From: Actinomycetes bacterium
Lineage (GTDB): Bacteria > Actinomycetota > Acidimicrobiia > IMCC26256 > PALSA-555
Length of the DNA stretch: 64,000 nucleotides
Assembly: GCA_037142235.1 (NCBI GenBank)
Contig: JBAXBB010000001.1
Location: 7,784 to 71,783, forward strand
Reading direction: 5' to 3'
Part shown: one piece after another, positions 36,868 to 64,000 of the stretch
Layout: each line of letters opens with the position of its first letter
Position numbering within the stretch: position 1 is the stretch's first letter
Position numbers and translations under genes: made by a program
Notes under the pieces: generated by a model
Told to the model about the DNA's origin: nothing
What the model saw: the letters and a program-made list of their open reading frames with translations, nothing else
Database searches by the model: none

Positions 36868-36869
36868 CC

Positions 36870-44423: not shown

Positions 44424-45100
44424 TGGGCCGGTTCAGTGGCTTTCGCGTGACGATCGGCCAGGTCGGCAAGGTCGTCACCACCAACTACCCCGACGAGAAG
44501 CGCCCGAAGCCCACCCGCTTCCACGGTCGGCACGTCCTCAACCGCTACGAGGACGGCATGGAGAAGTGCATCGGCTGTGAGCTGTGCGCAGGCGTTTGCC
44601 CGGCCCGGTGCATCTACGTGCGGGGCGCCGACAACCCCCCTGACTCCCCGGTCTCACCCGGTGAGCGCTTCGGCTTCGTCTACGAGATCAACTACCTCCG
44701 GTGCATCCACTGCGACCTGTGCGTGGAGGCGTGCCCCACGGGCGCGATCACCGAGACGAAGTTGTTCGAGTTCTCGTTCACGAACCGCTCCGACGCCATC
44801 TACACGAAGTCGGAGCTGCTCGTCGACGACGACGGCCGGGCCCGGCGCCAGCCGTGGGAGTTGTGGCTCGGCGGCGAGGACGACGAGACCAGCGCCTGGA
44901 TGCGGGCGACCTCCCCCGCCGGTCAGGCCGCCTTCGAGGGTCGGGTCGGCTGGTCGGGCGAACTCGGATTCGGCGTGCGCCCCCCGGAGCAGGGTCAGAC
45001 CGCGGTTCTCGAGCCCGAGCCGGTGCACGACCACGCACACGAAACGCACGCACACGGGGGGCACGGCCACGACGCGCAGGACGCGGGGGAACACCATTGA
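44423..45100 (+). CDS. nuoI: NADH-quinone oxidoreductase subunit I with His-rich C-terminal tail
   Basis: [12 protein letters not shown] and [12 protein letters not shown]. The tail reads [25 protein letters not shown]. Confidence 0.95.
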
Positions 45101-45645
45101 TCGCGTTCGTCTTCTTCCTCGCGGCCGCCGCGGCGCTCGCCGGCGCACTCGGCGTCGTGCTGGCGCGCAACCCGGTCCACTCGGCCCTGTTCCTCGTGAT
45201 GACCCTCATCAGCGTGGCCGTGCTGTTCCTGCTCCAGGATGCCGAACTGCTCGCCGCGGTCCAGGTGATCGTCTACGCGAGCGCGATCGTCGTGCTGTTC
45301 CTCTTCGTGATCATGCTCCTCGGCGTCGATCGGGAGGAGTCGACCGAGGATCCGATCCCCTACCAGCGGCCCGCCACCTTCGCGCTCGGGTTGATCCTCC
45401 TCGCCGAACTGGTCTTCCTCAGTGGTCACGTCTGGGCCACCGGCCAGCACACGGCTCGGGGCGTCCCGGTCACCGGCGGCGGGTTCGGCAACAACGTCGA
45501 GCGGATCGCCCGGGTGCTCTTCACGGACTTCCTCTGGACCTTCGAGATCACGGCGGTCCTGCTGGTGATCGCGGTCGTCGGTGCCGTCGTACTCGCGCGT
45601 CGCAGCGGACAGCGTCACGACGCCGACGACGAGGTGCTGGCATGA
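45097..45645 (+). CDS. nuoJ: NADH-quinone oxidoreductase subunit J
   Basis: TTG at 45097 overlaps the nuoI stop (TTGA). [24 protein letters not shown]...[18 protein letters not shown]. Confidence 0.85.
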
Positions 45646-45962
45646 CCTTCGCCACCTACACGATCACCGACACCTACTACCTGGTGCTGGCGGCGATGCT
45701 CTTCACCATCGGCGCCGTGGGGGTCCTCACCCGCCGCAACGTCCTCGTGATGTTCATGTGCGTCGAGTTGATGCTCAACGCCGTCAACCTCACGTTCGTG
45801 GCCTTCGCCCACACCTTGAACGACGTCGCCGGGCAGGTCATCGTGTTCTTCACGCTGGTCGTCGCCGCCGCCGAGGTGGCGGTGGGTCTGGCCATCATCG
45901 TCGTCATCTTCCGTCGCCGTCGACACGCCACCGCCGACGACCTCGCGGCCTTGAAGGGCTGA
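45642..45962 (+). CDS. nuoK: NADH-quinone oxidoreductase subunit K
   Basis: [17 protein letters not shown]...[17 protein letters not shown] overlaps the nuoJ stop (ATGA). Confidence 0.9.
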
Positions 45963-45987
45963 CCGTCATGCCGACCGGAGCCCGCCC

Positions 45988-48057: not shown

Positions 48058-48059
48058 CC

Positions 48060-49634: not shown

Positions 49635-51136
49635 TCGCAGTGACCGTTCCCATCGAGACCCCCACGGTCAACCTGTGGGCGCTCGCGCCGATCGTCGCCC
49701 TCGTGGGCGGTGGGGTCGGCGTGGTCCTGCTGCGAGCCCTGCTCCGCCGACACCGGGCGGTCACGCCGCTCTCCTTCGCGCTCGCGTTGGTGAGCGTCGC
49801 GGTCTCGGGCGGCTTCCTCTACCGCCAGTGGCACCTCGTCCGCGACCACGGGGCGATCACGACGATGGCCGGGATGGTTCGCGTCGATCCCTTCGCCGTG
49901 TTCATCGGGATCGTGATCGGTGCCGCGACCGCCATGGGTCTGCTGATCGCCTACTCCTACCTCAAGCGGGAGGGTCTCGAGGGGCCCGAGTACCTGGCCC
50001 TCGTGCTCCTGTCGGCGTCCGGCATGGTGATGATGTCGGTCGCCAACGACCTGGTCGCGGTGTTCGTCGCCCTCGAGGTGCTCTCCATCCCGCTCTACGT
50101 GCTCGCGGCCTTCGACCGCCGCCGCCTCACGTCGCAGGAGGCGGGCCTCAAGTACTTCGTCCTGGGAGCGTTCTCGTCGGCGATCTTCCTCTACGGCATC
50201 GCGTTGGTCTACGGCGGGACGGGCACGACCTCGCTCACCGGCATCGCCGACTTCCTGGCCAAGAACACGCTGTTCGAGCAGGGGACCCTTCTCGCGGGAA
50301 TCGGCCTGTTGATCGTCGGGCTCGGTTTCAAGGTCGCCGCGGTCCCGTTCCACATGTGGACTCCGGACGTCTACGAGGGTGCCCCCACGCCGGTCACGGC
50401 CTTCATGTCGACCGCCACCAAGGCGGCCGCCTTCGCCGCCCTCCTGCGTATCGTCACCGTGGCGTTCCCGCAGCTCCGCGACGACTGGCGTCCGGTGATC
50501 TGGGTCCTGGCCGCACTCTCCCTGCTGGTGGGGAGCATCGCCGCCATCGCGCAGAACGACATCAAGCGCATCCTGGCGTACTCATCGATCGCACACGCGG
50601 GGTACATCCTCATGGCGGTCTACGCGAGCAGCTCGCGGGGTCGTGAAGCGGCCGTGCTCTACCTGCTCGTCTACACGTTCATGTCGATCGGGGCTTTCTC
50701 GATCGTCATGGTCCTGAGCCACCACGGCGACGCCGAGCACACCCTCGACGGGTACCGCGGCCTCGCGCTGCGCCGCCCCCTGCTGGGTGGGCTCCTCATC
50801 TTCTTCGTGCTGGCCCAGGCGGGCATTCCCCTGACGAGCGGCTTCGTCGGGAAGCTCGAGATCTTCGCCTCGGTCGCACAGGCGAAGTCCTACGTGCTGC
50901 TCGTGATCGGCGTGGTCTCGGCCGTGATCGCGACGTTCTTCTACCTGCGGATCGCGCTGACGCTGGTGTCGGCCCCCGACGACGACACGGCGGTGGAGGC
51001 GAGCCTCGCCGTGCCGCGACGGGTCGACGGGTGGACCGGGGTGGTCATCGCGGCCGCGGCCGTGGTCACCCTGTTCATCGGAGTCGCCCCGGGCCTGTTC
51101 ATCCACTTCGCTCGCGACGCGGTCTTTTTCCTCTGA
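49631..51136 (+). CDS. nuoN: NADH-quinone oxidoreductase subunit N
   Basis: FKVAAVPFHMWTPDVYEGAPTPVTAFMSTATKAAAF...ILAYSSIAHAGY. Confidence 0.95.
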   Translation: MIAVTVPIETPTVNLWALAPIVALVGGGVGVVLLRALLRRHRAVTPLSFALALVSVAVSGGFLYRQWHLVRDHGAITTMAGMVRVDPFAVFIGIVIGAATAMGLLIAYSYLKREGLEGPEYLALVLLSASGMVMMSVANDLVAVFVALEVLSIPLYVLAAFDRRRLTSQEAGLKYFVLGAFSSAIFLYGIALVYGGTGTTSLTGIADFLAKNTLFEQGTLLAGIGLLIVGLGFKVAAVPFHMWTPDVYEGAPTPVTAFMSTATKAAAFAALLRIVTVAFPQLRDDWRPVIWVLAALSLLVGSIAAIAQNDIKRILAYSSIAHAGYILMAVYASSSRGREAAVLYLLVYTFMSIGAFSIVMVLSHHGDAEHTLDGYRGLALRRPLLGGLLIFFVLAQAGIPLTSGFVGKLEIFASVAQAKSYVLLVIGVVSAVIATFFYLRIALTLVSAPDDDTAVEASLAVPRRVDGWTGVVIAAAAVVTLFIGVAPGLFIHFARDAVFFL

Positions 51137-51170
51137 TCCCGGCCCGGCTGGTGCCGGACTCCGCCGTCGG

Positions 51171-52004
51171 TCAGAGGCCGAAGAGTTGCCGGGCGTTGCC
51201 ACCGAGGATTCGGGCCTGGTCGTCGTGGGAGAGCGACGACTCGAGGATCTGGGGCACCAGGTGACTGATCCGGCGCCCGAGTGGTGGCGAGTAGAGGTCG
51301 GTCCCGAAGACCACACGCTCCGCTCCGAACTGCTGGGCGAAGCGCTCGAGGAAGTCGAAGTTGTACGACAGGCTCGTGTCGAACAACAGGTTCGGACAGC
51401 GCTCGGCGACGGTGAAGGCCTCGCGGGTGCCCTCGAACGACGAGAAGGCGTCGAGCACCAGCATCGGGAGGTCGGGGAACGCGCGGGCGACGTCGGCGGT
51501 CTTCCACAGCGCCTCGTCGGACGATTCGGTCAGAGCGTGCAGCACGGGGACGAGCCCGAGCCCCCCCATCCGCTCGACGCAGCGGTGCACCCACGGGCTG
51601 TCCATCGACACGCCCTGGAAGCGGGCGTGGAAGCTGATCCCGCGCAGTCCGAGGTCGGTGACGCACCGGTCGAGCTCCGGGAGGCACGCCTCCTCGAACA
51701 TGGGCTCGACCACGCCGACGGCCACGGGAAATCGGGCGGGCCGGGCGTCGCGGTAGGCGGCGATGCGGTCGTTGAGCGCCCGCGTGTCGGCGGCTCCGTT
51801 GGCGCGCGGGTAGGCGTGGCCGGGGATCACCACGGCCTGGGCGACTCCGCCGGCGTCCATGATCGCCAGGCGGGCCTCCTGCTCGGCGGTGACCGCCGCT
51901 CCCGGGGCATCGTCGTCGCCCGTGAGGGGCATGAACGACCGGACGTCGCCGACGTGGTGGTGACAGTCGAGGATCTCGATCGGGGCGGCCATGGACCCGG
52001 ACAC
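51171..52004 (-). CDS. Amidohydrolase family (TIM-barrel metal-dependent hydrolase)
   Basis: ILDCHHHVG near the N-terminus, ...FHARFQG..., ...VFGTDLY. The start could be GTG at 52004 or ATG at 51992. Confidence 0.7.
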   Translation of the reverse strand: MSGSMAAPIEILDCHHHVGDVRSFMPLTGDDDAPGAAVTAEQEARLAIMDAGGVAQAVVIPGHAYPRANGAADTRALNDRIAAYRDARPARFPVAVGVVEPMFEEACLPELDRCVTDLGLRGISFHARFQGVSMDSPWVHRCVERMGGLGLVPVLHALTESSDEALWKTADVARAFPDLPMLVLDAFSSFEGTREAFTVAERCPNLLFDTSLSYNFDFLERFAQQFGAERVVFGTDLYSPPLGRRISHLVPQILESSLSHDDQARILGGNARQLFGL

Positions 52005-52019
52005 TACGACCGCCGGACC

Positions 52020-52025
52020 TAGGCT
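52020..52025 (+). promoter_or_regulatory. -10 box TAGGCT, 6 nt before the in-frame GTG at 52032 (leaderless rpiA)
   Basis: taggct at 52020-52025, then gtgggc, then GTG. Confidence 0.4.
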
Positions 52026-52031
52026 GTGGGC

Positions 52032-52694
52032 GTGTCGGCAGCGCTCGATCCACAGACGGCCCAGAAGAAGGCGGCTGCTGAACGGGCGGTCGAGTGGGTC
52101 CGGTCGGGCATGACCGTCGGGCTCGGCACCGGGTCCACGGCGATCTGGGCGATCCGGGGTATCGGCGCGGCGTTGGCCGACGGCTCGCTGCGCGACGTCG
52201 TGTGCATCCCGACGTCGGAGGTGAGCGCGGCGGCGGCCCGAGAGCTCGACATCCCGTTGGTCACGTTCGACGACCGGACGGTGATCGACCTCACGATCGA
52301 CGGCGCCGACGAGGTCGATCCGGCGCTCGACCTCGTCAAGGGCTACGGGGGGGCGCTCCTCCGGGAGAAGGTCGTCGCCCAGGCGACCCGGCGCCAGGTG
52401 ATCGTGGTCGACGCCTCGAAGCCGTCACCCCGGCTGGGCACCCGGTGCCACGTTCCCGTGGAGGTGTTCGCGCTCGGCGCGCAGGTCGTGCTCCGATCCG
52501 TCGGCGCCGACCCGTTCCTCACCGACGAGGGCAACTGGATCCTCGACGCCGACTTCGGTCCGATCGACGACGTGCCCCGGTTGGCGGCGCTCCTCCAGGC
52601 CCGGGCCGGGATCGTGGAGCACGGGCTCTTCGTGGGTCTCACCCACGATCTCCTGATCGCCGGACCCGACGGGGTCGAGCACCGGACCCTCTAG
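52032..52694 (+). CDS. rpiA: Ribose-5-phosphate isomerase A
   Basis: GMTVGLGTGSTA, IDGADEVD and KGYGGALLREK. The start at 52032 is chosen from the promoter geometry. The ORF-track start is 52026. Confidence 0.9.
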   Translation: MSAALDPQTAQKKAAAERAVEWVRSGMTVGLGTGSTAIWAIRGIGAALADGSLRDVVCIPTSEVSAAAARELDIPLVTFDDRTVIDLTIDGADEVDPALDLVKGYGGALLREKVVAQATRRQVIVVDASKPSPRLGTRCHVPVEVFALGAQVVLRSVGADPFLTDEGNWILDADFGPIDDVPRLAALLQARAGIVEHGLFVGLTHDLLIAGPDGVEHRTL

Positions 52695-52711
52695 GTCGGC
52701 GGCTCGTGGGC

Positions 52712-53677
52712 TCAGGCCCGCCGTCGCCACCAGCGCCGGAGTCGTTGGCGGTTCGGGCGCAGCTCGTGGTCGTCGAGGGCGCGGTGGGCCAGGGCCATGG
52801 CCTGGTCGATCAGCGGCCGGCCGCCGCCGAAGTCGAAGAACTCCCGGTCGTCGGGGGGAGGGGGGAGGACGACGAGTTCGACGTCGGGCGGGACCCACTG
52901 GAGCTCGAGGTCGAAGCGCTGGTCGCGGGAGATCGCCATGGCCCGGACGACCACGTCGAGGGGGGAGCGCAAGGGGCGCTCCCCCATGGGGTCGCTGACG
53001 TCGAGGACGAAGATCCGGTCGACGGGTCCGGCGAGGGCGTGGGAGATCGGCACCAGGTTCACCACCGCCCCGTCGACCAGGGTGCCGCCGCCGTGGGGCA
53101 CCGGGGGGAAGATGCCGGGCAGGGCCGAACTGGCCAGGAGGGCCGGCCGCAGCGGGCCCGAGGCGAACACCATTTCCGACCCGGAGTCGAGGTCGGCGGT
53201 CACGACCCGGAGGGGCACCGCGAGGTCGGAGAAGGCGTCGGGCACGAGCGCATTCTCGATCAGGGCCCGCATCCCCGAGTTGGGGATCAGGTGGTCGTCC
53301 CGGCGGAGGAGGTTCCAGGCCCGGCGCAGGGTCCCTCCGGGGAAGATCGCCTCGCTGGTCAGGCGGGTCCAGACCTCCTCAAGGTGGTCGATTTGGTGTA
53401 TTTCGGGCAAAGTAGCCACCACGGCACCGTTCAGGGCACCGACCGACGTCCCCACGACCACGTCGGGTCGGATCCCCCGCTCGAGCAGGGCGCGCAGCAT
53501 CCCGACCTGGCTCACCCCCTGGTTGCCACCCCCCGAGAGCACGAAGGCCGTCCGGGACTCCCGGACCCGTGGGGTCGTCACCTTGGTCACGCCCCCATGG
53601 TCGCAGGTCGAGGGCCGATCCCGGGGCGCGGAGGTGGGCCCTTCGGCCCGCGGGAACCGCGAGAACTCCGGGCGCAC
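52712..53677 (-). CDS. Patatin-like phospholipase family protein
   Basis: FVLSGGGNQG (oxyanion GGxxG) and GTSVGALNG (GxSxG). The start is uncertain (GTG at 53677 or GTG at 53590). Confidence 0.8.
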   Translation of the reverse strand: MRPEFSRFPRAEGPTSAPRDRPSTCDHGGVTKVTTPRVRESRTAFVLSGGGNQGVSQVGMLRALLERGIRPDVVVGTSVGALNGAVVATLPEIHQIDHLEEVWTRLTSEAIFPGGTLRRAWNLLRRDDHLIPNSGMRALIENALVPDAFSDLAVPLRVVTADLDSGSEMVFASGPLRPALLASSALPGIFPPVPHGGGTLVDGAVVNLVPISHALAGPVDRIFVLDVSDPMGERPLRSPLDVVVRAMAISRDQRFDLELQWVPPDVELVVLPPPPDDREFFDFGGGRPLIDQAMALAHRALDDHELRPNRQRLRRWWRRRA

Positions 53678-53754
53678 GGTTTGAGCGTGGGGAAACGCCG
53701 ATGCCTAGACTGCCGTCGCCGGCCCAGTGGGGGGCTGCGAGCGAAAGGCCGCGG

Positions 53755-54117
53755 GTGACGGAGTTCTATCGGGAGTACCTCGCCGTGGCAGTGCTGATGG
53801 GCGCGGCGATCCTCATGGTCTCGGCGATGCTGGGTCTGGGCCGGTTCGTCCGTCCCAAGCGGCCCCAGCCCGAGAAGTACATCTCCTACGAGGCCGGTTC
53901 CGACCCCACCAGTGCCTTCGGGCAGTCCAACGTCCGGTATTACGTCTTCGCCCTCCTCTTCGTCCTCTTCGACGTCGAAGCCGTGTTCGTGTTCCCCTGG
54001 GCGGTCAACCTCGAGCGGCTCGGGTGGTTCGGGCTGGTCGAGATGGTGGTCTTCATCGCGATCCTCGCCTTCGGGCTGTTCTACGCCTGGCGCAAGGGAG
54101 TCCTGCGGTGGGTCTGA
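53755..54117 (+). CDS. nuoA: Complex I-like subunit A (operon 2)
   Basis: [41 protein letters not shown] at 53755 gives a typical 120-aa NuoA. TAGACT at 53706-53711 would place the TSS downstream of the alternative ATG at 53701. Confidence 0.85.
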
Positions 54118-54680
54118 TCGACAAGGGGCGGATGCCCAAGCCGCTCACCTGGCTCCTCAACTACAGCCGCAAGTACTCGCTCTGGTGCTTCCAGTGGGGC
54201 CTGGCGTGCTGCGCCATCGAGATGGGTGCGGCCTTCGCGAGCCCGCGGTACGACGTCATGCGCCTCGGGGTCATCCCGTTCCCGGCCAGCCCGCGCCAGG
54301 CCGACCTCGTCGTGATCTCGGGCACCGTCACCGACAAGATGGCCCCGGCGATCCGCCGGCTCTACGAGCAGATGCCCGACCCGAAGTACGTGATCTCGAT
54401 GGGTTCCTGCGCCAACTGCGGTGGCCCCTACTGGGACTCGTACTCGGTCACCAAGGGTGTCGACCAGATCATCCCCGTCGACGTCTACGTGCCCGGGTGT
54501 CCGCCCCGACCCGAGGCGCTGCTCCAGGGCATCGTGATGCTGCAGGAACGAATCCAGAACGAAGGCATCGGCAACGACGACCTCCAGAAGCGCTGGCGCG
54601 GTGAGCCCATCGTCGTACGCGAGGAGCCGGTGCGGGTCGAACTCTCCACCAAGCCCGGAGCGGCGGTGACCGGTGTCTGA
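54108..54680 (+). CDS. nuoB: Complex I-like subunit B (operon 2)
   Basis: [10 protein letters not shown]...MGSCANCGG...VPGCPP. Confidence 0.9.
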
Positions 54681-55386
54681 CGAGACGACCGAGCCGACCG
54701 AGCCGACCGAGGTCCCCGAGGTCCCCGAGGTTGCGGAGACGCCGACGAGCGCGCCCGACCCCGACCCCGTGCACGTCGAGCTGCTCGCCCGCATCGACGC
54801 CGCGCTCGGCGACGCCGTGATCGAGTCGGCCGACGCCCTCGGTGGGCTCGTGGTGCGCGTGCGCACCGACGCCTGGGGGCGGGTCGCGGAGATCGCGCGC
54901 GACGCCCTCGAGTGCGACTACCTGTCGTTCGTGGCCGGCATCGACTGGATGCCCGCTCCCCCCGAAGGCGACGGCGAGAGCGCCGACACGTCGTCGCCCG
55001 TGCAACCGACCACCATGACCTATGGGGCCGCGGGCTCGGCGGGCCGCTTCCAGGTCTTCGGAATCGTGCAGTCCACGAGCCGACACTGGGGGGTCACCTT
55101 CAAGGCCGACGTCGACGAGAGCGACCCGGTGGTGGCCTCGTGGGTCGGGGTCTACCCGGGTGCCGACTGGCACGAGCGTGAATGCTGGGAGATGTACGGC
55201 ATCCGCTTCGTCGGGCATCCGGCGCTACGCCGCCTCTACCTCCCGTCGGAGTTCGAGGGCTACCCCCTGCGCAAGGACTTCCCGCTCCTGGCCCGCGTCG
55301 TGAAGCCGTGGCCGGGCCTGGTCGACGTCGAGGGCATGCCCGGCGACGAGCCGGCCGCCGTCGCCGCCGCTGGAGGTGAGGAATGA
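54673..55386 (+). CDS. nuoC: Complex I-like subunit C (operon 2) with acidic repeat N-terminus and internal insertion
   Basis: [38 protein letters not shown]. The N-terminus reads [15 protein letters not shown]. Confidence 0.9.
54688..54732 (+). repeat. 9-bp coding tandem repeats (accgagccg x2, gaggtcccc x2)
   Basis: Direct repeats encoding [15 protein letters not shown] at the 5' end of nuoC (operon 2). Confidence 0.75.
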
Positions 55387-56573
55387 GCACCACCGAGAGC
55401 CCTACGAACGCGCCCGGCTTCGAGGTCGACCGCAACGCGATCCGCCAGCTGGCCGACGCGCAGATCAACGTCGAGCTCGACACCGGCGACATGATCATCA
55501 ACCTCGGACCGCAACACCCCGCCACGCACGGCACCCTGCGACTCGTCGCCCGCCTCGACGGCGAGCGTGTCTTGGCCGCCGATCCGGTGATCGGCTACAT
55601 GCACCGCGGGTACGAGAAGCTCTCGGAGTTCCGCACCTATCCCCAGGTCACGACGCTGATCAATCGCATCGACTGGCTGTCGAGCTTCGCCAACGAGGTG
55701 CCGTTCGTCGACGCCGCCGAGCGCCTGATGGGCGTCGAGGCGCCGCCGCGGGCGGTGTGGATCCGGACCATCCTCACCGAGTTGTCGCGGATCGCGACCT
55801 TCGTCCTCTTCCTCGGCGAGATGGGCCTGCAGGTCGGCGCCCTCACCCCCGCGTTCTACGGGTTCCGCGATCGCGAGCACGTGCTCAACCTCATCGAAGC
55901 GGCGACCGGTGGGCGTTTCCACCCGAACTTCAACCGCATCGGCGGGCTCAAGGACGACCTGCCGTGGGGCTGGATCGCCGAGACCCGTTCGGCGATGAAG
56001 ACCATCCTCGACGCCTGCGACGTCTTCGAGGACCTCGTCGCCGGCAACGAGATCTTCTTGTCCCGGACGCGGGGCATCGGCGTGATCCCCGGCGACATCG
56101 GCACCTCGTACGGCGTGTCGGGCTCGAACCTGCGGGCTTCGGGCGTCGACTGGGACCTCCGTCGCGACGGTCGCCCCTACCTCGCCTACCCCGACCTCGA
56201 CTTCCAGGTCTGGACCCACCCCGACGGAGACTCGTTCTCGCGCTACTGGGTGCGCCTCCAGGAGACGCGCGAGTCGGTCCGCATGGTGCTCCAACTCCTC
56301 GACGGGCTGCCCGCCGGGCCGGTCATGGCCAAGGTGCCGCGCATCATCAAGGTCCCCGAGGGCGAGGTCTGGGTCGAGACCGAGAACCCGCTCGGCCAGA
56401 TGGGCTACTACGTGGTGTCCAAGGGCGCGACGGGGCCTTTCCGCGTGAAGATCCGGTCGGCGTCGTTCAGCAACGTCTCGATCCTGCCCTGGCTGCTCAA
56501 GGGCGTGTACGTCCCCGACATCGTCACCATCCTGGCGTCGCTCTACTTCATCCTCGGGGACATCGACCGGTGA
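55383..56573 (+). CDS. nuoD: Complex I-like subunit D (operon 2)
   Basis: INLGPQHPATHGTLRLVARLDGE...; ends ILGDIDR. There are no NiFe-type CxxC motifs. Confidence 0.95.
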   Translation: MSTTESPTNAPGFEVDRNAIRQLADAQINVELDTGDMIINLGPQHPATHGTLRLVARLDGERVLAADPVIGYMHRGYEKLSEFRTYPQVTTLINRIDWLSSFANEVPFVDAAERLMGVEAPPRAVWIRTILTELSRIATFVLFLGEMGLQVGALTPAFYGFRDREHVLNLIEAATGGRFHPNFNRIGGLKDDLPWGWIAETRSAMKTILDACDVFEDLVAGNEIFLSRTRGIGVIPGDIGTSYGVSGSNLRASGVDWDLRRDGRPYLAYPDLDFQVWTHPDGDSFSRYWVRLQETRESVRMVLQLLDGLPAGPVMAKVPRIIKVPEGEVWVETENPLGQMGYYVVSKGATGPFRVKIRSASFSNVSILPWLLKGVYVPDIVTILASLYFILGDIDR

Positions 56574-57601
56574 ACGTCGTCCTCGCGCTCCAGATCGGGT
56601 GGGGGACCACGCTCGCGATCAAGACGCTCGTGGTGCTCGCGATCATCCCGTTGGGAGCGCTCGTCCTCGGTTACGTCTTCCTCTTGAAGATGATGAGCCA
56701 TATGCAGAGTCGGCTCGGGCCCATGGACCCCGGAGGCTTCCACGGCTGGTTCCAGCTGGTGGGAGACGGAATGAAGTTCCTCCAGAAGGAGGACATCATC
56801 CCCGACGAGGCCGATCGCCGGGTCTTCGCCGCGGCGCCAGCCGTGGTGGTCATCTCGACCTTCCTGGTCTTCCTTGTGATCCCGATGGGCCCCGACCTCG
56901 TGGTCAAGAACCTCGACGTCGGCGTCTTCTACGCCCTGGCCGTCTCCAGCCTGTCGGTGATCGGCGTGCTGATGGCCGGTTGGGCGAGCGCCAACAAGTA
57001 CGCCCTCCTGGGGGCCCTGCGGGCCGCGGGCCAGCTGATCGCGTACGAGCTCCCGCTCCTGCTCGCCGTGACCGGTGTGGTCGTCCAGGCCAACACCATG
57101 AGCCTCCAAGGCATCGTCTACGCCCAGCAGAACGGCTCGATCTTCGGCTGGCACGGGGTCGGCAACCCGTTCATCCTCACCCAGTTCGTGGGCTTTGCCC
57201 TCTTCCTGGTCGCCTCCCAGGCCGAACTCACCCAGACGCCCTTCGACATGCCCGTCGCCGAGAGCGAGCTCGTCGCCGGCTACATGGTCGAGTACACCGG
57301 CTTCCGGTTCCTCTTCTTCTTCATCGGGGAGTTCGGCACGGCCACCGCCTTCGCGGCACTGGCGGCCACGATGTTCCTGGGCGGTTGGTCGCTGCCGTGG
57401 GTCCATGGGGGCATCGCCAACTGGATCGGCCCGTTCGTGCTCTTCGCCAAGTTGATGTTCGTGGCGTTCTTGATGTTCTGGGCGCGGTTCACCTATCCCC
57501 GTCTCCGTGAGGACCAGCTCCAGGCGCTCGCCTGGAAGGTGCTGATCCCCATCGGGCTGCTCAACCTGCTGATCACCGGCGTGTTCAAGGTGGCGTTCTG
57601 A
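56570..57601 (+). CDS. nuoH: Complex I-like subunit H (operon 2)
   Basis: GTG overlaps the nuoD stop (GTGA). MSHMQSRLGPMDPGGFHGWFQLVGDGMKFLQKE...ELTQTPFDMPVAESELVAGYMVEY. Confidence 0.95.
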   Translation: MNVVLALQIGWGTTLAIKTLVVLAIIPLGALVLGYVFLLKMMSHMQSRLGPMDPGGFHGWFQLVGDGMKFLQKEDIIPDEADRRVFAAAPAVVVISTFLVFLVIPMGPDLVVKNLDVGVFYALAVSSLSVIGVLMAGWASANKYALLGALRAAGQLIAYELPLLLAVTGVVVQANTMSLQGIVYAQQNGSIFGWHGVGNPFILTQFVGFALFLVASQAELTQTPFDMPVAESELVAGYMVEYTGFRFLFFFIGEFGTATAFAALAATMFLGGWSLPWVHGGIANWIGPFVLFAKLMFVAFLMFWARFTYPRLREDQLQALAWKVLIPIGLLNLLITGVFKVAF

Positions 57602-58089
57602 TGGCGCGTATGAAGCTTCCCGGCATGATCGGCGGTCTGGGCATCACCTTCAAGGAGATGCTCACACCTTCCGTCACCGTGCAGTACCCGCACGAGAAGG
57701 AGGAACCGCCGACGCGGGCCCGCGGGGTGATCGCGCTTCAGGAGGAGAACTGCACGGTCTGCATGCTGTGCGCGCGTTCCTGCCCCGACTGGTGCATCTA
57801 CATCGAAGGCCACAAGGAGAAGCGTCCGCCGCGCCGCGAGGGCGGACGTGACCGCACCGTCAGTGTCCTCGACCGTTTCGACATCGACTACGCCCTCTGC
57901 ATGTACTGCGGGATCTGCGTGGAGGTGTGCCCGTTCGACGCCATCCACTGGAGCCCGGAGTACGAGTACTCCGAGCCCAACATCTCCACGCTGCTCCACG
58001 ACAAGGTGAAGCTCGGGGAGTGGATGCCGTCGGTGCCCGAGGCCGAGCCGCTCGAGATCGGTGCCGAGCAGGGGAAGAAGAAGAAGTGA
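57601..58089 (+). CDS. nuoI: Complex I-like subunit I (operon 2)
   Basis: CTVCMLCARSCP and CMYCGICVEVCP. Confidence 0.95.
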   Translation: MARMKLPGMIGGLGITFKEMLTPSVTVQYPHEKEEPPTRARGVIALQEENCTVCMLCARSCPDWCIYIEGHKEKRPPRREGGRDRTVSVLDRFDIDYALCMYCGICVEVCPFDAIHWSPEYEYSEPNISTLLHDKVKLGEWMPSVPEAEPLEIGAEQGKKKK

Positions 58090-58111
58090 GCGCGCAGGAG
58101 GGGCTCCGCTG

Positions 58112-58618
58112 ATGTGGGCCCAGGAGGTCGCGTTCTGGATCATCGCGGTGGCCATGGGGCTATCCGCGATCGGAGTCGTGCGCTCGCGCAACGTCGTGCA
58201 CGCTGCACTGTTCCTCGTAGTGGTGCTCGCCGGGTCGGCGGCTGTCTACATCCTCTTGCTGGCCGAGTTCGTCGCCTGGGTCCAGGTGCTCGTCTACATC
58301 GGCGCCATCGTGGTGTTGTTCCTCTTCGGCATCATGTTGACCCGGGCTCCGATGCGTGACGACGCCAAGAAGCTCGACAACGATCAGCGGCTCATGTCGG
58401 CGGTCGTCGGCCTGTTCCTGTTCGGCGTCCTGACCGTGTTCCTGGTCGACGCCTTCGGCAGCCAGAAGATCCGCTTCACGAACTCGTTGGTCCCGCTGGG
58501 TAGCACCGCGTCGGTCGGCTCCGACATCTTCCACCAGTACGTGATCCCGTTCGAAGTTGTCTCGATGCTGCTGCTGGCGGCGCTCGTCGGTGCCGTGGTC
58601 CTGGCCCGGAAGGACTGA
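58112..58618 (+). CDS. nuoJ: Complex I-like subunit J (operon 2)
   Basis: SRNVVHAALFLVVVLAGSAAVYILL...[27 protein letters not shown] Shine-Dalgarno. Confidence 0.9.
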   Translation: MWAQEVAFWIIAVAMGLSAIGVVRSRNVVHAALFLVVVLAGSAAVYILLLAEFVAWVQVLVYIGAIVVLFLFGIMLTRAPMRDDAKKLDNDQRLMSAVVGLFLFGVLTVFLVDAFGSQKIRFTNSLVPLGSTASVGSDIFHQYVIPFEVVSMLLLAALVGAVVLARKD

Positions 58619-58621
58619 CGG

Positions 58622-58921
58622 ATGCCGATTAACTACTTCCTCGTCCTCAGTGCCTTCCTTTTCTGTGCCGGGGCGTACGGTGTTCTCGCCCGGCGCAACT
58701 CGGTGCTGGTCCTCATGAGCGTCGAGCTCATGCTCAATGCCGTCAACATCAACCTGGTCGCGTTCTCCGCCGGACTCCACGACGTCTCGGGCCAGGTGTT
58801 CGCGCTGTTCGTGATCACGATCGCGGCGGCGGAGGTCGGGATCGGCCTCGCCATCGTGTTGCTCATCTTCCGTAACCTCCGGAGCGCCGACCTGGACCAG
58901 GTCGAGCAGTTGAAGGGCTGA
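58622..58921 (+). CDS. nuoK: Complex I-like subunit K (operon 2)
   Basis: [17 protein letters not shown]...[14 protein letters not shown]. Confidence 0.95.
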
Positions 58922-58929
58922 CGCGAACG

Positions 58930-61002
58930 ATGCTCGACCACGTCTGGATCATCCCCCTCATTCCTGCCGTCTCCTTCGTCCTCATCTTGTTGTTCGGGAA
59001 GCGGATGCCGTTCAAGGGTGCCGAGATCGGCATCACCTCCATCGCCTCGTCGTTCGTGCTGGCGATCGTCGTGGCCGTCCAGTGGATCACGCGGGTCGAG
59101 AACGTCACCGGCAAGGCGCAGGGGCTGGCGGCACTCGGCAAGGGCGTCCTGTCGATTCCCGAAGGCGGCAAGAAGACCGAGGTGGCCCCCATCATCCACG
59201 GGTTCACTTGGTGGCAGAACGGCGCCGCGAAGTTCGTCGTGGGAGCCCGGGTCGACGGGCTCGTGGTGATGATGCTGATCGTCGTCACGACGATCTCGCT
59301 GCTCGTGCACGTCTACTCGACCGCCTACATGCACGGCGACCGTCGCTACACCTACTTCTATGCAGCGCTCTCCCTCTTCTCGGCCTCAATGCTGCTACTC
59401 GTGGTCTCGAGCAACCTGCTCCAGCTGCTCGTCGGGTGGGAGCTCGTCGGTCTGTGTTCGTTCATGCTGATCGGTCACTGGTGGGAGGAGAAGCCGAACT
59501 CCAACGCCGCACTCAAGGCGTTCCTCACCACCCGGACCGGCGACGTGGGGCTGATGATCGGCGTGATCATCTGCTTCTTCGCCGCCAACACCTTCGACAT
59601 CAGCGGCATCAACTCCTACGCCCTGGGCGCCCACGCAGATCACGGCCTGCTGCTGGTGGCGGCGATCGCGCTCATGTTCGGGATCATGGGCAAGAGCGGG
59701 CAGTTCTTCTTGCATACCTGGCTCCCCGATGCCATGGCCGGTCCCACGCCCGTGTCGGCGCTCATCCACGCGGCCACCATGGTGGTCGCCGGCGTGTATC
59801 TCGGCGCCCGCGTCTACCCGGTGTTCTGGAACGGCTTCAGCATTGGCGGCGGCGGATTCAACATGATGGCCGTGGTGGGTGGCGTCACGATCATCGTCGG
59901 TGCGTTGCTGGCTTTCGCCCAGGACGACATCAAGAAGGTGCTCGCCTATTCCACGATCAGCCAGCTCGGCTACATGGTGATGGCGCTCGGAGTCGGTGCC
60001 TGGGGCGCGGCGATCTTCCACCTCTTCACGCACGCCTTCTTCAAGGCGCTGCTGTTCCTCGGTGCGGGGGCCATCAGCCACGCAGCCACGCACCACTCCT
60101 TCGACATGAAGAAGGAGATGGGCGGTCTGCGGAAGTTCATGCCGATCACCTTCTGGACCTTCATGATCGGCACGCTCGCCCTGGCGGGCATCTTTCCCCT
60201 GGCCGGATTCTGGTCGAAGGACGAGATCCTGGCGACGGCCGGTCAGTCCGACTTCAAAGTCTTCATGGTCGTGGGTCTCGTCGGGGCCGGGCTCACGGCG
60301 GCCTACATGACCCGCTGCGTGTACCTCACGTTCTTCGGGCACTATCGCGGCCATCATCACCCGCACGAGGCCGAACCTGCCATCACCATCCCGCTGGTGA
60401 TCCTCGCGGTCCTGTCGGTCGTCGCCGGCCTGTTGAACGCCGCGCCCTTCCACATCGAGAAGTTCGGCAAGTGGGTCGAGCAGGTCGGGGCCTTCCCGGA
60501 GCTCCTCCACCCCAAGTTTGACTACGTTTTGGCTGCGACCTCCGTCTCGATCGTCGTGATCCTCATCGGCGGGGCTACGTTCTTCTGGTTCCGGCGTGAG
60601 GAGATCGGTGCGCTGCACGATCTCACGAAGCGCAACCGGCTCGCCCACGCCGGATTCACCTTCCTGGAGCGGAAGTACTTCCTCGACGATCTGTACGAGG
60701 GAGTCATCGTGGCCGGCATCAAGGGCCCGATCGCCCAGGCGTCCTACTGGGTCAACCAGAACGTCATCGACGGATTCGTCAAGGGTACGGGGCGCACGGC
60801 AGTGAAGGTCGGCCAGTTCACCTACACCGCCATCGACCGGAAGGTCGTCGACGCGGCGATCACCGGTCTCGCGAAGGAAACCGGCGCCGCCGGTGGAGAG
60901 TTGTCCAAGGTCCAGTCGGGCAAGGTGCAGCGATACGCGTTGCTCCTGCTCGCCGCGGTCGGCCTCATCGGGCTCGCCGTGTACATCTACAACGTTGTCT
61001 AG
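58930..61002 (+). CDS. nuoL: Complex I-like subunit L (operon 2)
   Basis: GWELVGLCSFMLIGHWWE...GKSGQFFLHTWLPDAMAGPTPVSALIHAATMVVAGV. Confidence 0.95.
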   Translation: MLDHVWIIPLIPAVSFVLILLFGKRMPFKGAEIGITSIASSFVLAIVVAVQWITRVENVTGKAQGLAALGKGVLSIPEGGKKTEVAPIIHGFTWWQNGAAKFVVGARVDGLVVMMLIVVTTISLLVHVYSTAYMHGDRRYTYFYAALSLFSASMLLLVVSSNLLQLLVGWELVGLCSFMLIGHWWEEKPNSNAALKAFLTTRTGDVGLMIGVIICFFAANTFDISGINSYALGAHADHGLLLVAAIALMFGIMGKSGQFFLHTWLPDAMAGPTPVSALIHAATMVVAGVYLGARVYPVFWNGFSIGGGGFNMMAVVGGVTIIVGALLAFAQDDIKKVLAYSTISQLGYMVMALGVGAWGAAIFHLFTHAFFKALLFLGAGAISHAATHHSFDMKKEMGGLRKFMPITFWTFMIGTLALAGIFPLAGFWSKDEILATAGQSDFKVFMVVGLVGAGLTAAYMTRCVYLTFFGHYRGHHHPHEAEPAITIPLVILAVLSVVAGLLNAAPFHIEKFGKWVEQVGAFPELLHPKFDYVLAATSVSIVVILIGGATFFWFRREEIGALHDLTKRNRLAHAGFTFLERKYFLDDLYEGVIVAGIKGPIAQASYWVNQNVIDGFVKGTGRTAVKVGQFTYTAIDRKVVDAAITGLAKETGAAGGELSKVQSGKVQRYALLLLAAVGLIGLAVYIYNVV

Positions 61003-61020
61003 CGGAGGGGAACGCACCGC

Positions 61021-62571
61021 ATGAGCTGGTTCGATGACTGGGCGCTGACCCTCGCGGTCTTCATCCCACTCGTCGGTATGGCGATCGTCATGCTGATCCC
61101 GAGTGCCGAGGAGCAAGCCATCAAGACGGTGGCACTGCTGGCTTCGCTCGTCACCCTGGCGGTCGGTATCGGCGTCCTGGCCGACTTCAACTACCAGAAG
61201 ACCTCGACGCTGCAGTTCCAGGTCGACAAGTCGTGGATCAGCCTCATTCACGCCCGGTACCACCTGGGCGTGGACGGCATCTCGCTGCCGATGATCATCT
61301 TGACCATGGTGATCGTGCCGTTGTGCATCATCTACTCCTGGGACCACTTCCCGGAGCCGCACAACCCGAAGGCCTTCCTGGCGCTGATCCTGCTCCTCGA
61401 AGTCGGCATGATCGGGACCTTCGTCTCGCTCGACCTCGTCCTGTTCTTCATCTTCTTCGAGGTCGTCCTCCTGCCGATGTTCTTCATGATCGGCGTGTGG
61501 GGGGGCCCGAACCGCGAGTACGCCTCGATCAAGTTCTTCCTGTTCACCCTGTTCGGGTCCGCGCTCATGCTGGTGAGCTTCCTGGCGATCTACTTCCTCT
61601 CGAAGCAGCCCACCTTCGACATCGTCCACCTGTCGCAGTTCGCCGGATCGGGCATCGGGCGGGGAACTCAGATCCTGCTGTTCGCGGGCCTCTTCCTCGG
61701 CTTCGCCATCAAGGTGCCGATGTTCCCGTTCCACACCTGGCTCCCCGACGCCCACACGGAAGCCCCCACGGTCGGTTCAGTCATCCTGGCGGCGGTGCTC
61801 CTGAAGCTCGGGACCTACGGGTTCATCCGGATCGCGCTGCCGATTCTCCCGCAGGGGGCGCAGGTCTGGGCGCCTTGGATCGGCGTGCTCGCCGTGATCG
61901 GCATCATCTATGGCGCCTTGTGCTGCCTGGCCCAGACCGACATGAAGCGCCTGATCGCCTTCTCGTCGGTCTCGCACATGGGTTTCGTGATGCTGGGCAT
62001 CGCGTCCCTCACCACGTTCGGGATCAACGCCGCCGTGTTCGGCATGGTGGCGCACGGTCTGATCACCGGCCTGCTCTTCTTCGTCGCCGGGTCGATGCAG
62101 CACCGCTACCACACCCGTGAGATGTCGCGGCTCGGTGGTCTGCTGATCTCGGCCCCCAAGATGGGCTGGATCCTCGGGTTCGCGGCCATGGCCTCACTCG
62201 GCCTGCCCGGATTGGCCGGCTTCTGGGGCGAGTTCCCCGCCGTCCTCTCGGCGTTCGACCCGTCGAAGGTCGCCAACGGTCTGCTCGGGAACACTCATTC
62301 GGCGCTCCCGACCTTCCGGACCTTCATGGTCATCGCGGCGGTCGGTACCGTCCTCGCTGCCGGTTACCTCCTCTGGATGTACCAGCGGGTCGCGATGGGC
62401 ACGCCGAAGGAAGAGTTCGAGCACGCCCACCTCCACGACGTCTCCACGTCGGAGTGGATCGCCTGGTTGCCGCTGATCCTCGGCACCGTGGTCTTCGGCC
62501 TGTTCCCGAACCTCATCTTCTCCATCACCAACGGCGCCGCCGAGCACGTCACCAAGGTCTTCGGGGGCTAG
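61021..62571 (+). CDS. nuoM: Complex I-like subunit M (operon 2)
   Basis: FFIFFEVVLLPMFFMIGVWG...KVPMFPFHTWLPDAHTEAPTVGSVILAAV. Confidence 0.95.
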   Translation: MSWFDDWALTLAVFIPLVGMAIVMLIPSAEEQAIKTVALLASLVTLAVGIGVLADFNYQKTSTLQFQVDKSWISLIHARYHLGVDGISLPMIILTMVIVPLCIIYSWDHFPEPHNPKAFLALILLLEVGMIGTFVSLDLVLFFIFFEVVLLPMFFMIGVWGGPNREYASIKFFLFTLFGSALMLVSFLAIYFLSKQPTFDIVHLSQFAGSGIGRGTQILLFAGLFLGFAIKVPMFPFHTWLPDAHTEAPTVGSVILAAVLLKLGTYGFIRIALPILPQGAQVWAPWIGVLAVIGIIYGALCCLAQTDMKRLIAFSSVSHMGFVMLGIASLTTFGINAAVFGMVAHGLITGLLFFVAGSMQHRYHTREMSRLGGLLISAPKMGWILGFAAMASLGLPGLAGFWGEFPAVLSAFDPSKVANGLLGNTHSALPTFRTFMVIAAVGTVLAAGYLLWMYQRVAMGTPKEEFEHAHLHDVSTSEWIAWLPLILGTVVFGLFPNLIFSITNGAAEHVTKVFGG

Positions 62572-62581
62572 GGGGCGACCG

Positions 62582-64000
62582 GTGACTCCGTACCTCGACT
62601 ACCACGGGCTGGCTCCGGAGATCGTCCTCACGGCGGTCATCCTGATCGCGCTCGTCGTCGACCTCGTCTGGAAGGAAGCGGCACGATCGGTCGTGCCGCA
62701 GATCGCCGGGGTGGGTCTCCTCGGCACCCTGGTCCCGATCGCGACGCTCGCCGCCGACGGCCACACCCGCACGATGTTCGGCGGCGCTTTCGTCGTCGAC
62801 AACTACTCGTTGGCGTTCGCCGCCTTCTTCGTGGTGGTCGGCTACGTCTCGCTGCTGCTGTCCTACGACTACATCGCCGACGGCGACTACTACCAGGGTG
62901 AGTACTACGTCCTCCTGCTCACTTCGGTGCTCGGCATGGTGGTCCTGGCCTCGTCGCGTGACCTCATCACGATCTTCGTGGCGCTCGAGACGGTGACCCT
63001 GCCCTCCTTCGTGCTGGCCGGATGGCGCAAACACGACACGCGCTCGAACGAAGCGGCGATCAAGTACTTCCTGATCGGCGTGCTCTCGACCGCGGTGATG
63101 CTCTACGGGATGTCGATCGTCTACGGCATGAGCGGGACGACGCTCCTGGCGGGCATCGCGGCAGCCGCCGCAGCCCACCAGGCCCCGCTGTTCGCGGTGG
63201 CGATCGCCCTGGTCCTCGGCGGCTTTGCCTTCAAGGTCTCGGCGGTGCCGTTCCACTTCTGGACCCCGGACACCTACGAGGGCGCCCCCACTCCGGTGAC
63301 GGCGTTCCTCTCGGTCGCCTCCAAGGCGGCCGGGTTCGTGGGGCTCTTGACGGTAGTGCGGTTCGCCTTCTTCCCGTCCCACCTCTCGTGGCAGCCGGTG
63401 CTGTGGGGTCTGGCGGCCGCGTCGATCGTGGTCGGCAACCTGGCGGCGCTCCGTCAGACCAACGTCGTGCGGATGCTCGCCTATTCGTCGATCGCCCAGG
63501 GAGGTTTCATTCTGGTCCCGTTGGCGGTCGCGGGCAGCGGATCCTCGGCCAAGGTCGGCTACGAGGGCGTCTTCATCTACCTCCTGGTGTACGCCGCCAT
63601 GAACCTCGGCGCGTTCGCCTGCGTGATCGCCAACGCGCGCCGCACCCGGTCGGGTGAGATCACCTCGTTCGCCGGGCTGGGCCGGACCAACCCCGCCCTG
63701 GCGGTCGTCTTCTCGATCTTCCTCTTCTCGCTGGCCGGAGTTCCCCCGTTCGCGGGTTGGTTCGCCAAGTTCGTCATGTTCCGGGCGGTCCTCGAGAACG
63801 GGTCGACGGGTGCGGTGATCCTCGGCGTGATCGCGGCGGTCTTCTCGGTCGTGGCGTTCTTCTATTACGCAGGAGTCGTCCGCCAGATCTGGTTCCACGA
63901 CCCGGCCGACCTCGGTGCCGACACTGCGTCGAAGCTGCCGGTGGCCCTCACTGCGGCGCTGTCGATCACGCTGGCCGTGGTCCTCGTGATCGGCGTCTAC
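62582..64000 (+). CDS. nuoN: Complex I-like subunit N (operon 2), 3'-truncated by the window end
   Basis: My own translation from GTG at 62582 gives VTPYLDYHGLAPEIV...FKVSAVPFHFWTPDTYEGAPTPVTAFLSVASKAAGF...MLAYSSIAQGGF. It is absent from the ORF track because there is no stop codon in the window. Confidence 0.9.
   Translation, partial: MTPYLDYHGLAPEIVLTAVILIALVVDLVWKEAARSVVPQIAGVGLLGTLVPIATLAADGHTRTMFGGAFVVDNYSLAFAAFFVVVGYVSLLLSYDYIADGDYYQGEYYVLLLTSVLGMVVLASSRDLITIFVALETVTLPSFVLAGWRKHDTRSNEAAIKYFLIGVLSTAVMLYGMSIVYGMSGTTLLAGIAAAAAAHQAPLFAVAIALVLGGFAFKVSAVPFHFWTPDTYEGAPTPVTAFLSVASKAAGFVGLLTVVRFAFFPSHLSWQPVLWGLAAASIVVGNLAALRQTNVVRMLAYSSIAQGGFILVPLAVAGSGSSAKVGYEGVFIYLLVYAAMNLGAFACVIANARRTRSGEITSFAGLGRTNPALAVVFSIFLFSLAGVPPFAGWFAKFVMFRAVLENGSTGAVILGVIAAVFSVVAFFYYAGVVRQIWFHDPADLGADTASKLPVALTAALSITLAVVLVIGVY

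Follow-up and report, generated by a model that had tools for sequence, protein, structure and literature searches.

The question raised by this locus is what an operon for respiratory complex I might do when it codes for none of the subunits that oxidize reduced nicotinamide adenine dinucleotide (NADH). The window, by which we mean the whole 64,000-nucleotide stretch of DNA analyzed here, derives from an uncultured freshwater bacterium of the Acidimicrobiia, a class of actinobacteria, and contains two nuo operons. Operon 1 is a complete nuoA-N set, and operon 2 is an eleven-gene set, nuoA2-B2-C2-D2-H2-I2-J2-K2-L2-M2-N2, on the plus strand at 53755-64000, in which the listing and translation of open reading frames (ORFs) and searches with the NCBIfam and Pfam models reveal no nuoE, nuoF or nuoG. 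Operon 2 encodes all parts of an 11-subunit, redox-driven proton pump of the complex I type (complex 2) that selection has maintained, and it is always attached to a twelfth gene, which codes for an S-adenosylmethionine (SAM)-dependent methyltransferase of the NDUFAF7/MidA family. The overall interpretation that we consider somewhat favored by the evidence is that of an 11-subunit complex I-like pump whose NuoD2 subunit is acted upon by this methyltransferase and whose electron input is of the ferredoxin or flavodoxin type.

The genes of operon 2 are tightly packed, with overlaps or gaps of no more than 22 nucleotides (nt), and each product matches the expected Nuo subunit family in NCBIfam and Pfam. 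An exact look-up of NuoM2 retrieved two metagenome contigs, L001 and L002, which are base-identical to the window from about 52950 (L001) or 52470 (L002) to its end and continue beyond the truncated nuoN2. An earlier note on this DNA had described eleven nuo genes in this order without nuoE/F/G and a GTGA overlap between the nuoD2 stop and the nuoH2 start; both were recovered here, the latter at 56570-56573. The features are (aa, amino acids; E, expectation value):

53678-53754, intergenic region from the patatin gene (minus strand) to nuoA2, in a divergent gene layout
53755-54117, plus strand, nuoA2, 120 aa, with an alternative start at 53701 preferred by one gene caller; PF00507 and NCBIfam NuoA models (best E 1.5e-37)
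54108-54680, plus strand, nuoB2, 190 aa, carrier of cluster N2; NF005012 (NuoB) at 222 bits against a cut-off of 116
54673-55386, plus strand, nuoC2, 237 aa; PF00329 and TIGR01961 (NuoC_fam, E 2.6e-27)
55383-56573, plus strand, nuoD2, 396 aa, short form; aligned end to end with NF008974 and the FpoD model
56570-57601, plus strand, nuoH2, 343 aa, with a GTG start within the nuoD2 stop (GTGA)
57601-58089, plus strand, nuoI2, 162 aa, with two [4Fe-4S] motifs; Fer4 families and TIGR01971
58112-58618, plus strand, nuoJ2, 168 aa, in an ORF opening at 58061; PF00499 and NF005168 (E 9e-36)
58622-58921, plus strand, nuoK2, 99 aa; NF004320 at 120 bits against a cut-off of 57
58930-61002, plus strand, nuoL2, 690 aa; NF005141 at 585 bits against a cut-off of 556
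61021-62571, plus strand, nuoM2, 516 aa; TIGR01972 at 562 bits
62582-64000, plus strand, nuoN2, cut by the window end; full length 488 aa in the identical contig L001, where the gene stops 48 nt past the window
64089-68448 (extrapolated window positions, L001 13069-17428), block of methyltransferase, acetyl-CoA synthetase (Acs), YajQ and GNAT genes

Operon 2 is a predicted transcription unit apart from the adjoining operon 1, and its own promoter is presumed to lie in the intergenic region 53678-53754. A consensus scan of operon 2 and its flanks for promoters and terminators gave no sigma-70-like site and nothing above shuffled expectation, which is uninformative for an actinobacterium of 70% G+C, and an Rfam scan of the whole window returned no matches.

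The conservation of the operon was followed by scanning one genome per GTDB species with NuoL2. This retrieved 558 relatives, of which the best 80 loci (NuoL2 identity 85-51%) were analyzed; these are labelled Acidimicrobiia, Actinomycetota or similar, except for two records with the names of unrelated organisms, all appear to come from Acidimicrobiia, and they include the complete genome IMCC26256 and a metagenome-assembled genome (MAG) of Candidatus (Ca.) Microthrix. In the tblastn synteny map of these loci the full A2-N2 set is present with intact reading frames in 57 of the 80 species-level loci, that is, in all the loci that cover the operon. No homologue of NuoE, NuoF or NuoG occurs within 10 kilobases (kb) in any of the 80, and the gap between nuoD2 and nuoH2 has a median of 14 nt. 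The ratio of nonsynonymous to synonymous substitution rates (dN/dS), computed against three relatives, lies between 0.06 and 0.33 for all ten operon 2 genes tested, and metagenomes hold thousands of close homologues.

Alignment to the subunits of E. coli K-12 indicates that the residues expected of a working enzyme have been kept. NuoB2 has all four N2 cysteines (E. coli C63, C64, C129, C158), with a proline at the position of E. coli Arg87, and NuoI2 has kept both of its CxxCxxCxxxCP motifs. NuoD2 is devoid of the NiFe cysteine pairs of group 4 hydrogenases, RIDWLSS and SLYFILGDIDR replacing the CxxC motifs. The pump residues retained comprise E144, K229, H334, H338, K399 and D400 in NuoL2, E144, K234, K265 and E407 in NuoM2, E133, K217, K247 and K395 in NuoN2, E36 and E72 in NuoK2, E157, D213, E220 and E228 in NuoH2, and D79 and E81 in NuoA2. 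Because the eleven-gene operon persists in 57 loci under purifying selection (dN/dS of 0.06-0.33), with its Fe-S ligands and pump residues kept, it encodes an enzyme that is old, functional and class-wide, and is not the scar of a deletion. The same data agree with the earlier note, which had taken the lack of E/F/G to be integral, the N2 ligands of NuoB2 and the 4Fe-4S motifs of NuoI2 to be intact, and NuoD2 to be free of NiFe cysteines.

The reference for comparison within the window is the first operon:

35834-51136, plus strand, operon 1, complete nuoA-N of 14 genes with Pfam matches for all, including NuoE (2Fe-2S_thioredx), NuoF (Complex1_51K) and NuoG

Its nuoE/F/G constitute the sole N-module in the window. 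As had been stated before us, operon 1 is complete, and the paralogues of the two operons are strongly diverged, with NuoD of 436 versus 396 aa and NuoH of 400 versus 343 aa (operon 1 versus operon 2); their identity is 33-55%. The patatin, rpiA and amidohydrolase genes, also reported earlier as flanking genes, sit between the two operons. In an alignment to Thermus thermophilus Nqo4, NuoD2 is without residues 315-336, a 22-residue deletion. The 366-aa NuoD model NF008974 and FpoD match it over its entire length, while the standard NuoD model does so only in two pieces. Given this short form and the divergence of the paralogues, operon 2 is no recent copy of operon 1. Among solved structures, NuoD1 comes closest to the Mycobacterium smegmatis subunit, whereas for NuoD2 Thermus ranks first and cyanobacterial NdhH second (320 bits), with the mycobacterial subunit far lower. 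The placement of operon 2 rests on the short-form indel together with the ranking of NCBIfam models and of PDB matches, and because of these the two operons are assigned to different complex I lineages as judged from sequence. NuoC2 differs from NuoC1 in an internal insertion and a C-terminal extension, and its N-terminus (window 54673-54770) is an acidic, low-complexity stretch rich in proline, glutamate and threonine. Extensions of NuoC have also been noted in Bacillus 11-subunit enzymes (Moparthi & Hagerhall 2011). NuoI1 (225 aa) has a long C-terminal extension with a histidine-rich tail (window 45020-45100) that resembles a metal-binding motif, unlike NuoI2.

The twelfth gene lies outside the window. 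In L001, a gap of 40 nt after nuoN2 is followed by a gene for a 386-aa PF02636 methyltransferase, then after 47 nt by the acetyl-CoA synthetase gene on the same strand, and then, on the opposite strand, by genes for YajQ and a GNAT acetyltransferase. The protein scores 146.7 bits against PF02636 (cut-off 23.3) and counts Dictyostelium NDUFAF7 (5ztz, E 9e-15) and bacterial COG1565 structures among its homologues; the SAM motif ExGAGxG, DFxTSPE and ANELLDNLP are invariant or nearly so in 59 methyltransferase orthologues. In each of the 62 genome loci with sufficient sequence the gene lies 3' of nuoN2 and in the same orientation, in most cases at a distance of 3-85 nt, and conversely a nuoN2-like gene lies 5' of it in 61 of 61 metagenome loci, an independent sample retrieved with the methyltransferase itself. 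Acs is likewise conserved beside the methyltransferase (57 Acs matches in the 80 genome loci), and a functional link of it to the complex is not evident.

The candidate target of the methyltransferase is Arg75 of NuoD2, in the motif GYMHRGYEK; the arginine is present in 65 of 65 loci and 120 of 120 homologues. NuoD1 has a threonine at the methyl-arginine position (GYLHTGMEK), and threonine also occupies it in 120 of 120 NuoD1-like sequences. Dimethylation of this NuoD arginine is documented for the enzymes of cattle, humans, Pichia and Paracoccus; in Thermus the residue is a threonine (PMC3750175). Mitochondrial NDUFAF7, an assembly factor for complex I, symmetrically dimethylates the equivalent residue, Arg85 of NDUFS2, and shares with the operon 2 protein the Pfam family and motifs; the latter differs in being bacterial, in being linked to an enzyme lacking the N-module, and in being closer to the COG1565 proteins 4f3n and 1zkd. 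By analogy, the methyltransferase probably dimethylates NuoD2 Arg75, a residue beside cluster N2. As NuoD1 has a threonine at that position, the methyltransferase would serve complex 2 only and not complex 1.

A further departure concerns the predicted quinone site. Relative to Nqo4, NuoD2 keeps His38 and shows the replacements Thr64 to Arg, Tyr87 to Trp (Trp98 of NuoD2), Thr135 to Glu, Asp139 to Gln, Phe146 to Ala, Asp401 to Tyr and Pro402 to Phe, so that of the canonical head-group set (Tyr87 and the His38-Asp139 pair) only His38 is left. These changes are invariant in 38 full-length orthologues and 120 close homologues; Tyr87 to Trp is invariant class-wide, and Asp139 to Gln, Asp401 to Tyr and Thr135 to Glu are invariant within this clade. 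NuoD1 keeps Tyr87, Asp139 and Asp401, and NuoD1-like sequences are canonical. In the 150 best representatives sampled from NuoD diversity, Tyr/Asp is the prevailing pair, and the combination of Trp with Asp139 is hardly ever seen. The pocket of NuoD2 has been rebuilt in a non-canonical form. A Y87W change has been reported in piericidin-producing Streptomyces, and as a site-directed mutation it entails severe loss of decylubiquinone activity along with inhibitor resistance, although short-chain quinones still react (Degli Esposti 2015, PMC4758237). Apart from that Streptomyces note, our literature search found no natural Tyr to Trp change in Fpo or 11-subunit enzymes.

Distant NuoD relatives of the Trp87 type were set aside as a clue to operon 2, on which they have no direct bearing, as they are stand-alone genes (P0164, P0124, P0188) or part of a soluble cluster (P0142); the nearest, P0121, belongs to a heliorhodopsin-linked operon of the Ca. 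Actinomarinales arrangement. The stand-alone NuoD-like genes with Trp at Tyr87 on L091, L092 and the P0124 contig have no nuo neighbors and recall the separate nuoD2 of Streptomyces. In an unrelated assembly (L090, 3956-10341) a Trp87-type NuoCD fusion is accompanied by a NuoB-like protein, a Fer4/FrhB/FdhB (FpoF-like) protein and a FAD-oxidase/CCG-domain protein, with no membrane subunits; this cluster may represent a soluble F420-linked module built from parts of the complex I Q-module.

Taken together, the subunits would form a Q-module (NuoB2, NuoC2, NuoD2, NuoI2), a membrane group of NuoH2, NuoA2, NuoJ2 and NuoK2, and the antiporter-like NuoL2, NuoM2 and NuoN2. NuoI2 might be the entry point for electrons, delivered not by NADH but by a soluble one-electron carrier of low potential and of the ferredoxin or flavodoxin type, a step that we propose with lower confidence. 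Their route would then lead over both NuoI2 clusters to N2 and on to a membrane quinone, possibly menaquinone, in the non-canonical pocket (Trp for Tyr87, Gln for Asp139), and quinone reduction would drive proton translocation via the fully conserved Lys/Glu/His channels. The C-terminal tail of NuoI2 ends in a lysine cluster, PEAEPLEIGAEQGKKKK, and two to four terminal lysines are present in 77 of 77 orthologues; a lysine-rich extension of FpoI has reportedly been discussed for the ferredoxin-dependent Fpo of Methanothrix, which serves here as a lead only. Use of ferredoxin has a precedent in cyanobacterial NDH-1, a ferredoxin:plastoquinone oxidoreductase. Electrons from ferredoxin have also been proposed for the Fpo without FpoF of Methanothrix and Methanomassiliicoccales, and ferredoxin has been proposed as the donor of the 11-subunit enzyme of Desulfitobacterium (Willemin et al. 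2024). Ferredoxin is, on indirect evidence, our best guess for the donor here, and we would rank the options as a ferredoxin-type carrier, then module sharing, then F420 and reverse or other modes.

Sharing would mean that complex 2 borrows NuoE, NuoF and NuoG from operon 1, so that the cell would possess two isoforms of NADH:quinone oxidoreductase, one of them, for example, inhibitor-insensitive or with a retuned quinone site. We judge this to be unlikely. Proximity speaks for it: of the 52 loci whose upstream sequence extends to 3 kb or more, 47 have nuo1 (nuoN1) immediately 5' of nuo2. So do the link of the Tyr87 to Trp change to inhibitor resistance (PMC4758237) and the case of Syntrophobacter, for which Spero et al. 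raised sharing given a single nuoEFG set and a duplicate complement of the remaining genes. However, nuo1 is out of reach in five of the 52 loci, oppositely oriented genes part the two operons in this genome, and the subunits on which NuoG would dock (I2, C2, D2, B2) are only 36-52% identical to those of operon 1 and belong to the short-form lineage; moreover, the NuoE/F-like proteins of Desulfitobacterium do not co-vary with the 11-subunit enzyme (Willemin et al. 2024). An F420H2:quinone oxidoreductase of the Fpo/Fqo type, with an FpoF/FqoF-like input subunit encoded elsewhere in the genome, has been proposed for the orthologous cluster of Ca. Actinomarinales, which has up to 35% identity to Methanosarcina Fpo in a phylum where F420 is widespread (Lopez-Perez et al. 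2020). The distant NuoCD homologue of L090, which adjoins the Fer4+FrhB/FpoF-like gene in another organism, could be cited in its favor, but that cluster without membrane subunits is a different system. In addition, no gene for FpoF, FqoF or FpoO was found at any locus, either inside the operon or in the roughly 5-10 kb around it, and the Fpo-specific NCBIfam models (FpoC, D, H, I, J, K, L) fall well short of their cut-offs (FpoD 336 bits against 600) and are outscored by the Nuo models, rendering this option still less probable than sharing.

An equally improbable possibility is that complex 2 is not an ordinary quinone reductase, and either runs in reverse, with quinol and the proton-motive force (supplied, for example, by rhodopsins) reducing a low-potential carrier, or uses another membrane acceptor. 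It would accommodate the class-invariant Tyr87 to Trp change and the clade-invariant changes at Asp139, Asp401 and Thr135, set against a canonical NuoD1 and a dominant Tyr/Asp pair elsewhere, and the operon of Ca. Actinomarinales is fused to a heliorhodopsin gene unit. Yet the conservation of His38, of the E-channel residues of NuoH and of the entire pump machinery matches that of forward-running enzymes, Tyr87 mutants remain active with short-chain quinones (PMC4758237), no alternative acceptor is indicated, and the window contains no heliorhodopsin. Finally, the view that operon 2 arose by duplication of a nuo operon, lost nuoEFG and is now a non-functional relic in decay has the absence of these genes as its sole point, and we reject it, with a probability close to nil, on the conservation data: intact frames for all 11 genes in the 57 loci, low dN/dS, kept cofactor ligands and pump residues, a conserved D2-H2 junction and abundant metagenome homologues.

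Several observations count against the interpretation that we prefer, a methyltransferase-modified pump fed by a ferredoxin-type or flavodoxin-type carrier. No donor protein is encoded in operon 2 or its flanks, and at this locus no ferredoxin-docking subunit of the NdhS/V/O kind is found within operon 2, where the largest internal gap is 22 nt, or beside it. The best PDB matches of NuoI2 are the mitochondrial and alphaproteobacterial TYKY/NuoI, and it resembles cyanobacterial NdhI no more closely than it does mitochondrial TYKY. The organism is apparently an aerobic freshwater heterotroph, for which a source of reduced ferredoxin is not established. Quinone reduction by complex 2 is an assumption, given that a site-directed mutation equal to its Tyr87 to Trp change causes a severe drop in decylubiquinone reduction (PMC4758237). 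In E. coli the same arginine of NuoD is present and unmodified (PMC3750175), and the synteny of nuoN2 and the methyltransferase gene could partly reflect inherited gene order, since Acs is conserved there too.

The genes around operon 2 offer little on the donor. No nuoEFG or FpoF-like gene is found 3' of nuoN2 in the identical contigs (up to about 5 kb downstream). The earlier note had seen no input partner in the flanks and had named nuoEFG immediately 3' of nuoN2 as what would overturn its view; the flanks are indeed without such a partner, the downstream genes being those of the methyltransferase, acetyl-CoA synthetase, YajQ and GNAT. It missed the conserved NDUFAF7-like gene and the rebuilt quinone pocket of NuoD2, and its proposal of the ferredoxin at 20388 as a carrier does not stand, as that gene lies in a cytochrome b/Rieske/cytochrome c operon:

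19676-25705, plus strand, bc-type operon: a 235-aa protein of unknown function, the Fe-S protein, a split cytochrome b, Rieske protein, c-type cytochrome and two unknown ORFs
20388-20804, plus strand, 2x[4Fe-4S] protein, 138 aa, second gene of the bc-type operon
20834-21622, plus strand, N-terminal part of cytochrome b, the C-terminal part being a separate gene
about 25742-32400, minus strand, heme biosynthesis cluster, between the bc-type operon and nuo1: hemL-like aminotransferase, ALAD, uroporphyrinogen methyltransferase/HEM4 fusion, porphobilinogen deaminase, glutamyl-tRNA reductase and a siroheme-synthase-like NAD_binding_7 protein

The Fe-S protein at 20388 was rejected as a free electron carrier because of this operon context, and is most likely a subunit of a cytochrome bc-type complex.

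Some variation in the neighborhood was also recorded. The stretch between the nuo operons is a variable insertion spot: in the otherwise identical same-population contigs L001 and L002 it differs by indels (window 51021-52945), and across species it is empty or holds patatin alone or patatin with rpiA. In an Acidimicrobiales MAG (L074, 5604-7660) a 2.2-kb insertion separates nuoD2 and nuoH2 in an otherwise intact operon. It was rejected as an input module: it contains an enoyl-CoA hydratase-like ORF (5604-6296, recognized by eye only) and about 1.3 kb without a clear gene, and no redox protein. Two GenBank MAGs named as "Bordetella parapertussis" (L025, CALQAT020000053.1) and "Bifidobacterium breve" (L028, CAMDSG010000031.1) carry typical Acidimicrobiia nuo2-methyltransferase-Acs loci with 65% NuoL2 identity, and are probably mislabelled bins.

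What the present analysis adds is the downstream context, the class-wide reciprocal linkage of the NDUFAF7 homologue, the Arg/Thr split of the NuoD paralogues, the invariant remodelling of the NuoD2 pocket and the conserved tail of NuoI2. Only the complex lacking E/F/G pairs a methylatable arginine with its own NDUFAF7-like gene and has lost the canonical quinone tyrosine. It is conceivable, though we consider it doubtful, that such enzymes make up a distinct complex I-like subclass, and are more than a complex I minus EFG, marked by a pocket with Trp for the universally conserved Tyr87 (with Gln139 in this clade), a dedicated NDUFAF7 homologue that methylates the arginine by N2, and a lysine-tailed NuoI on which a soluble low-potential carrier docks. 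If so, this would be the first bacterial enzyme in which the "mitochondrial" NDUFAF7 assembly step is genetically hard-wired, and for one of two co-resident complexes, and its quinone chemistry, inhibitor sensitivity or directionality may differ from every characterized member of the family. The question of the donor of bacterial 11-subunit complex I-like enzymes dates from at least 2011, and this locus alone brings no answer closer. It does bear on what NDUFAF7 homologues do in bacteria and on how different members of the complex I family tune N2 and their quinone site, and an abundant freshwater lineage with both complexes side by side provides a comparative test bed.

Among known systems, the canonical 14-subunit Nuo is set apart by its dedicated N-module (NuoE, NuoF with its flavin mononucleotide/NADH site, and NuoG), which operon 2 does not encode. 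Cyanobacterial and chloroplast NDH-1 resemble complex 2 in their 11 core subunits, in their proton-pumping architecture and in having no NuoEFG, but form their ferredoxin site with extra photosynthesis-specific subunits (NdhS/V/O and others), none of which is encoded in operon 2, and their NdhH is of the long form. Operon 2 shares the 11-subunit core and the short-form FpoD with Fpo/Fqo, and differs from these in having no FpoF or FpoO and in falling below the cut-offs of the Fpo-specific models. NuoD of Bacillus keeps Tyr87. Fpo also keeps Tyr87 and is without His38 and Asp139 (Degli Esposti 2015, PMC4758237), so that NuoD2, with His38 kept and Tyr87 lost, is its opposite. The "ancestral" NUO11 enzymes of Bacillus cereus and Desulfitobacterium hafniense (Moparthi & Hagerhall 2011; Willemin et al. 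2024) have the same 11 genes, no N-module, a short-form NuoD and no dedicated partner protein known; operon 2 differs from them in adjoining a canonical complex I in an apparently aerobic organism, in its linked NDUFAF7 homologue and in lacking Tyr87 and Asp139. Actinobacteria were already listed among the holders of the 11-subunit enzyme, with no partner protein found (Moparthi & Hagerhall 2011).

The arrangement itself has been published for Ca. Actinomarinales, which belong to the same class, for Streptomyces and for actinobacteria in general. Streptomyces has a second nuo set (nuoA2, B2, H2, I2, K2, L2, M2, N2 and a separate nuoD2) beside a full nuoA-N (PMC8388888). This set is analogous to operon 2, being an actinobacterial second set without E/F/G alongside a full operon, and is likened to it here by gene set; it is incomplete or split, with nuoD2 elsewhere and nuoC2 not listed, whereas operon 2 is complete and contiguous. 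The orthologue of operon 2 is the second, nuoEFG-less nuo cluster of Ca. Actinomarinales, which have two nuo clusters, one without EFG, "like other actinobacteria" (Lopez-Perez et al. 2020, PMC7771536), and in which the order heliorhodopsin-nuoABCDHIJKLMN-NDUFAF7 was described with a 14-subunit operon close by (Bulzu et al. 2021, bioRxiv 10.1101/2021.02.01.429150). The order nuoABCDHIJKLMN followed by NDUFAF7 (PF02636) and the nearby full 14-gene operon are common to both, but heliorhodopsin and an Fe3+ ABC transporter lie between the operons there in place of patatin, rpiA and amidohydrolase, and htpX and pspE are found downstream there in place of Acs, YajQ and GNAT. The nearest outgroup in our data (L093) is a heliorhodopsin-linked 11-gene cluster of the Actinomarinales-type arrangement, of unconfirmed taxonomy, in which heliorhodopsin and ABC-transporter genes are among those immediately upstream of nuoA2. 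Its NuoD is 55% identical to NuoD2 and shares the arginine and Trp87, but has Glu at Asp139 and keeps Asp401, where the present clade has Gln and Tyr.

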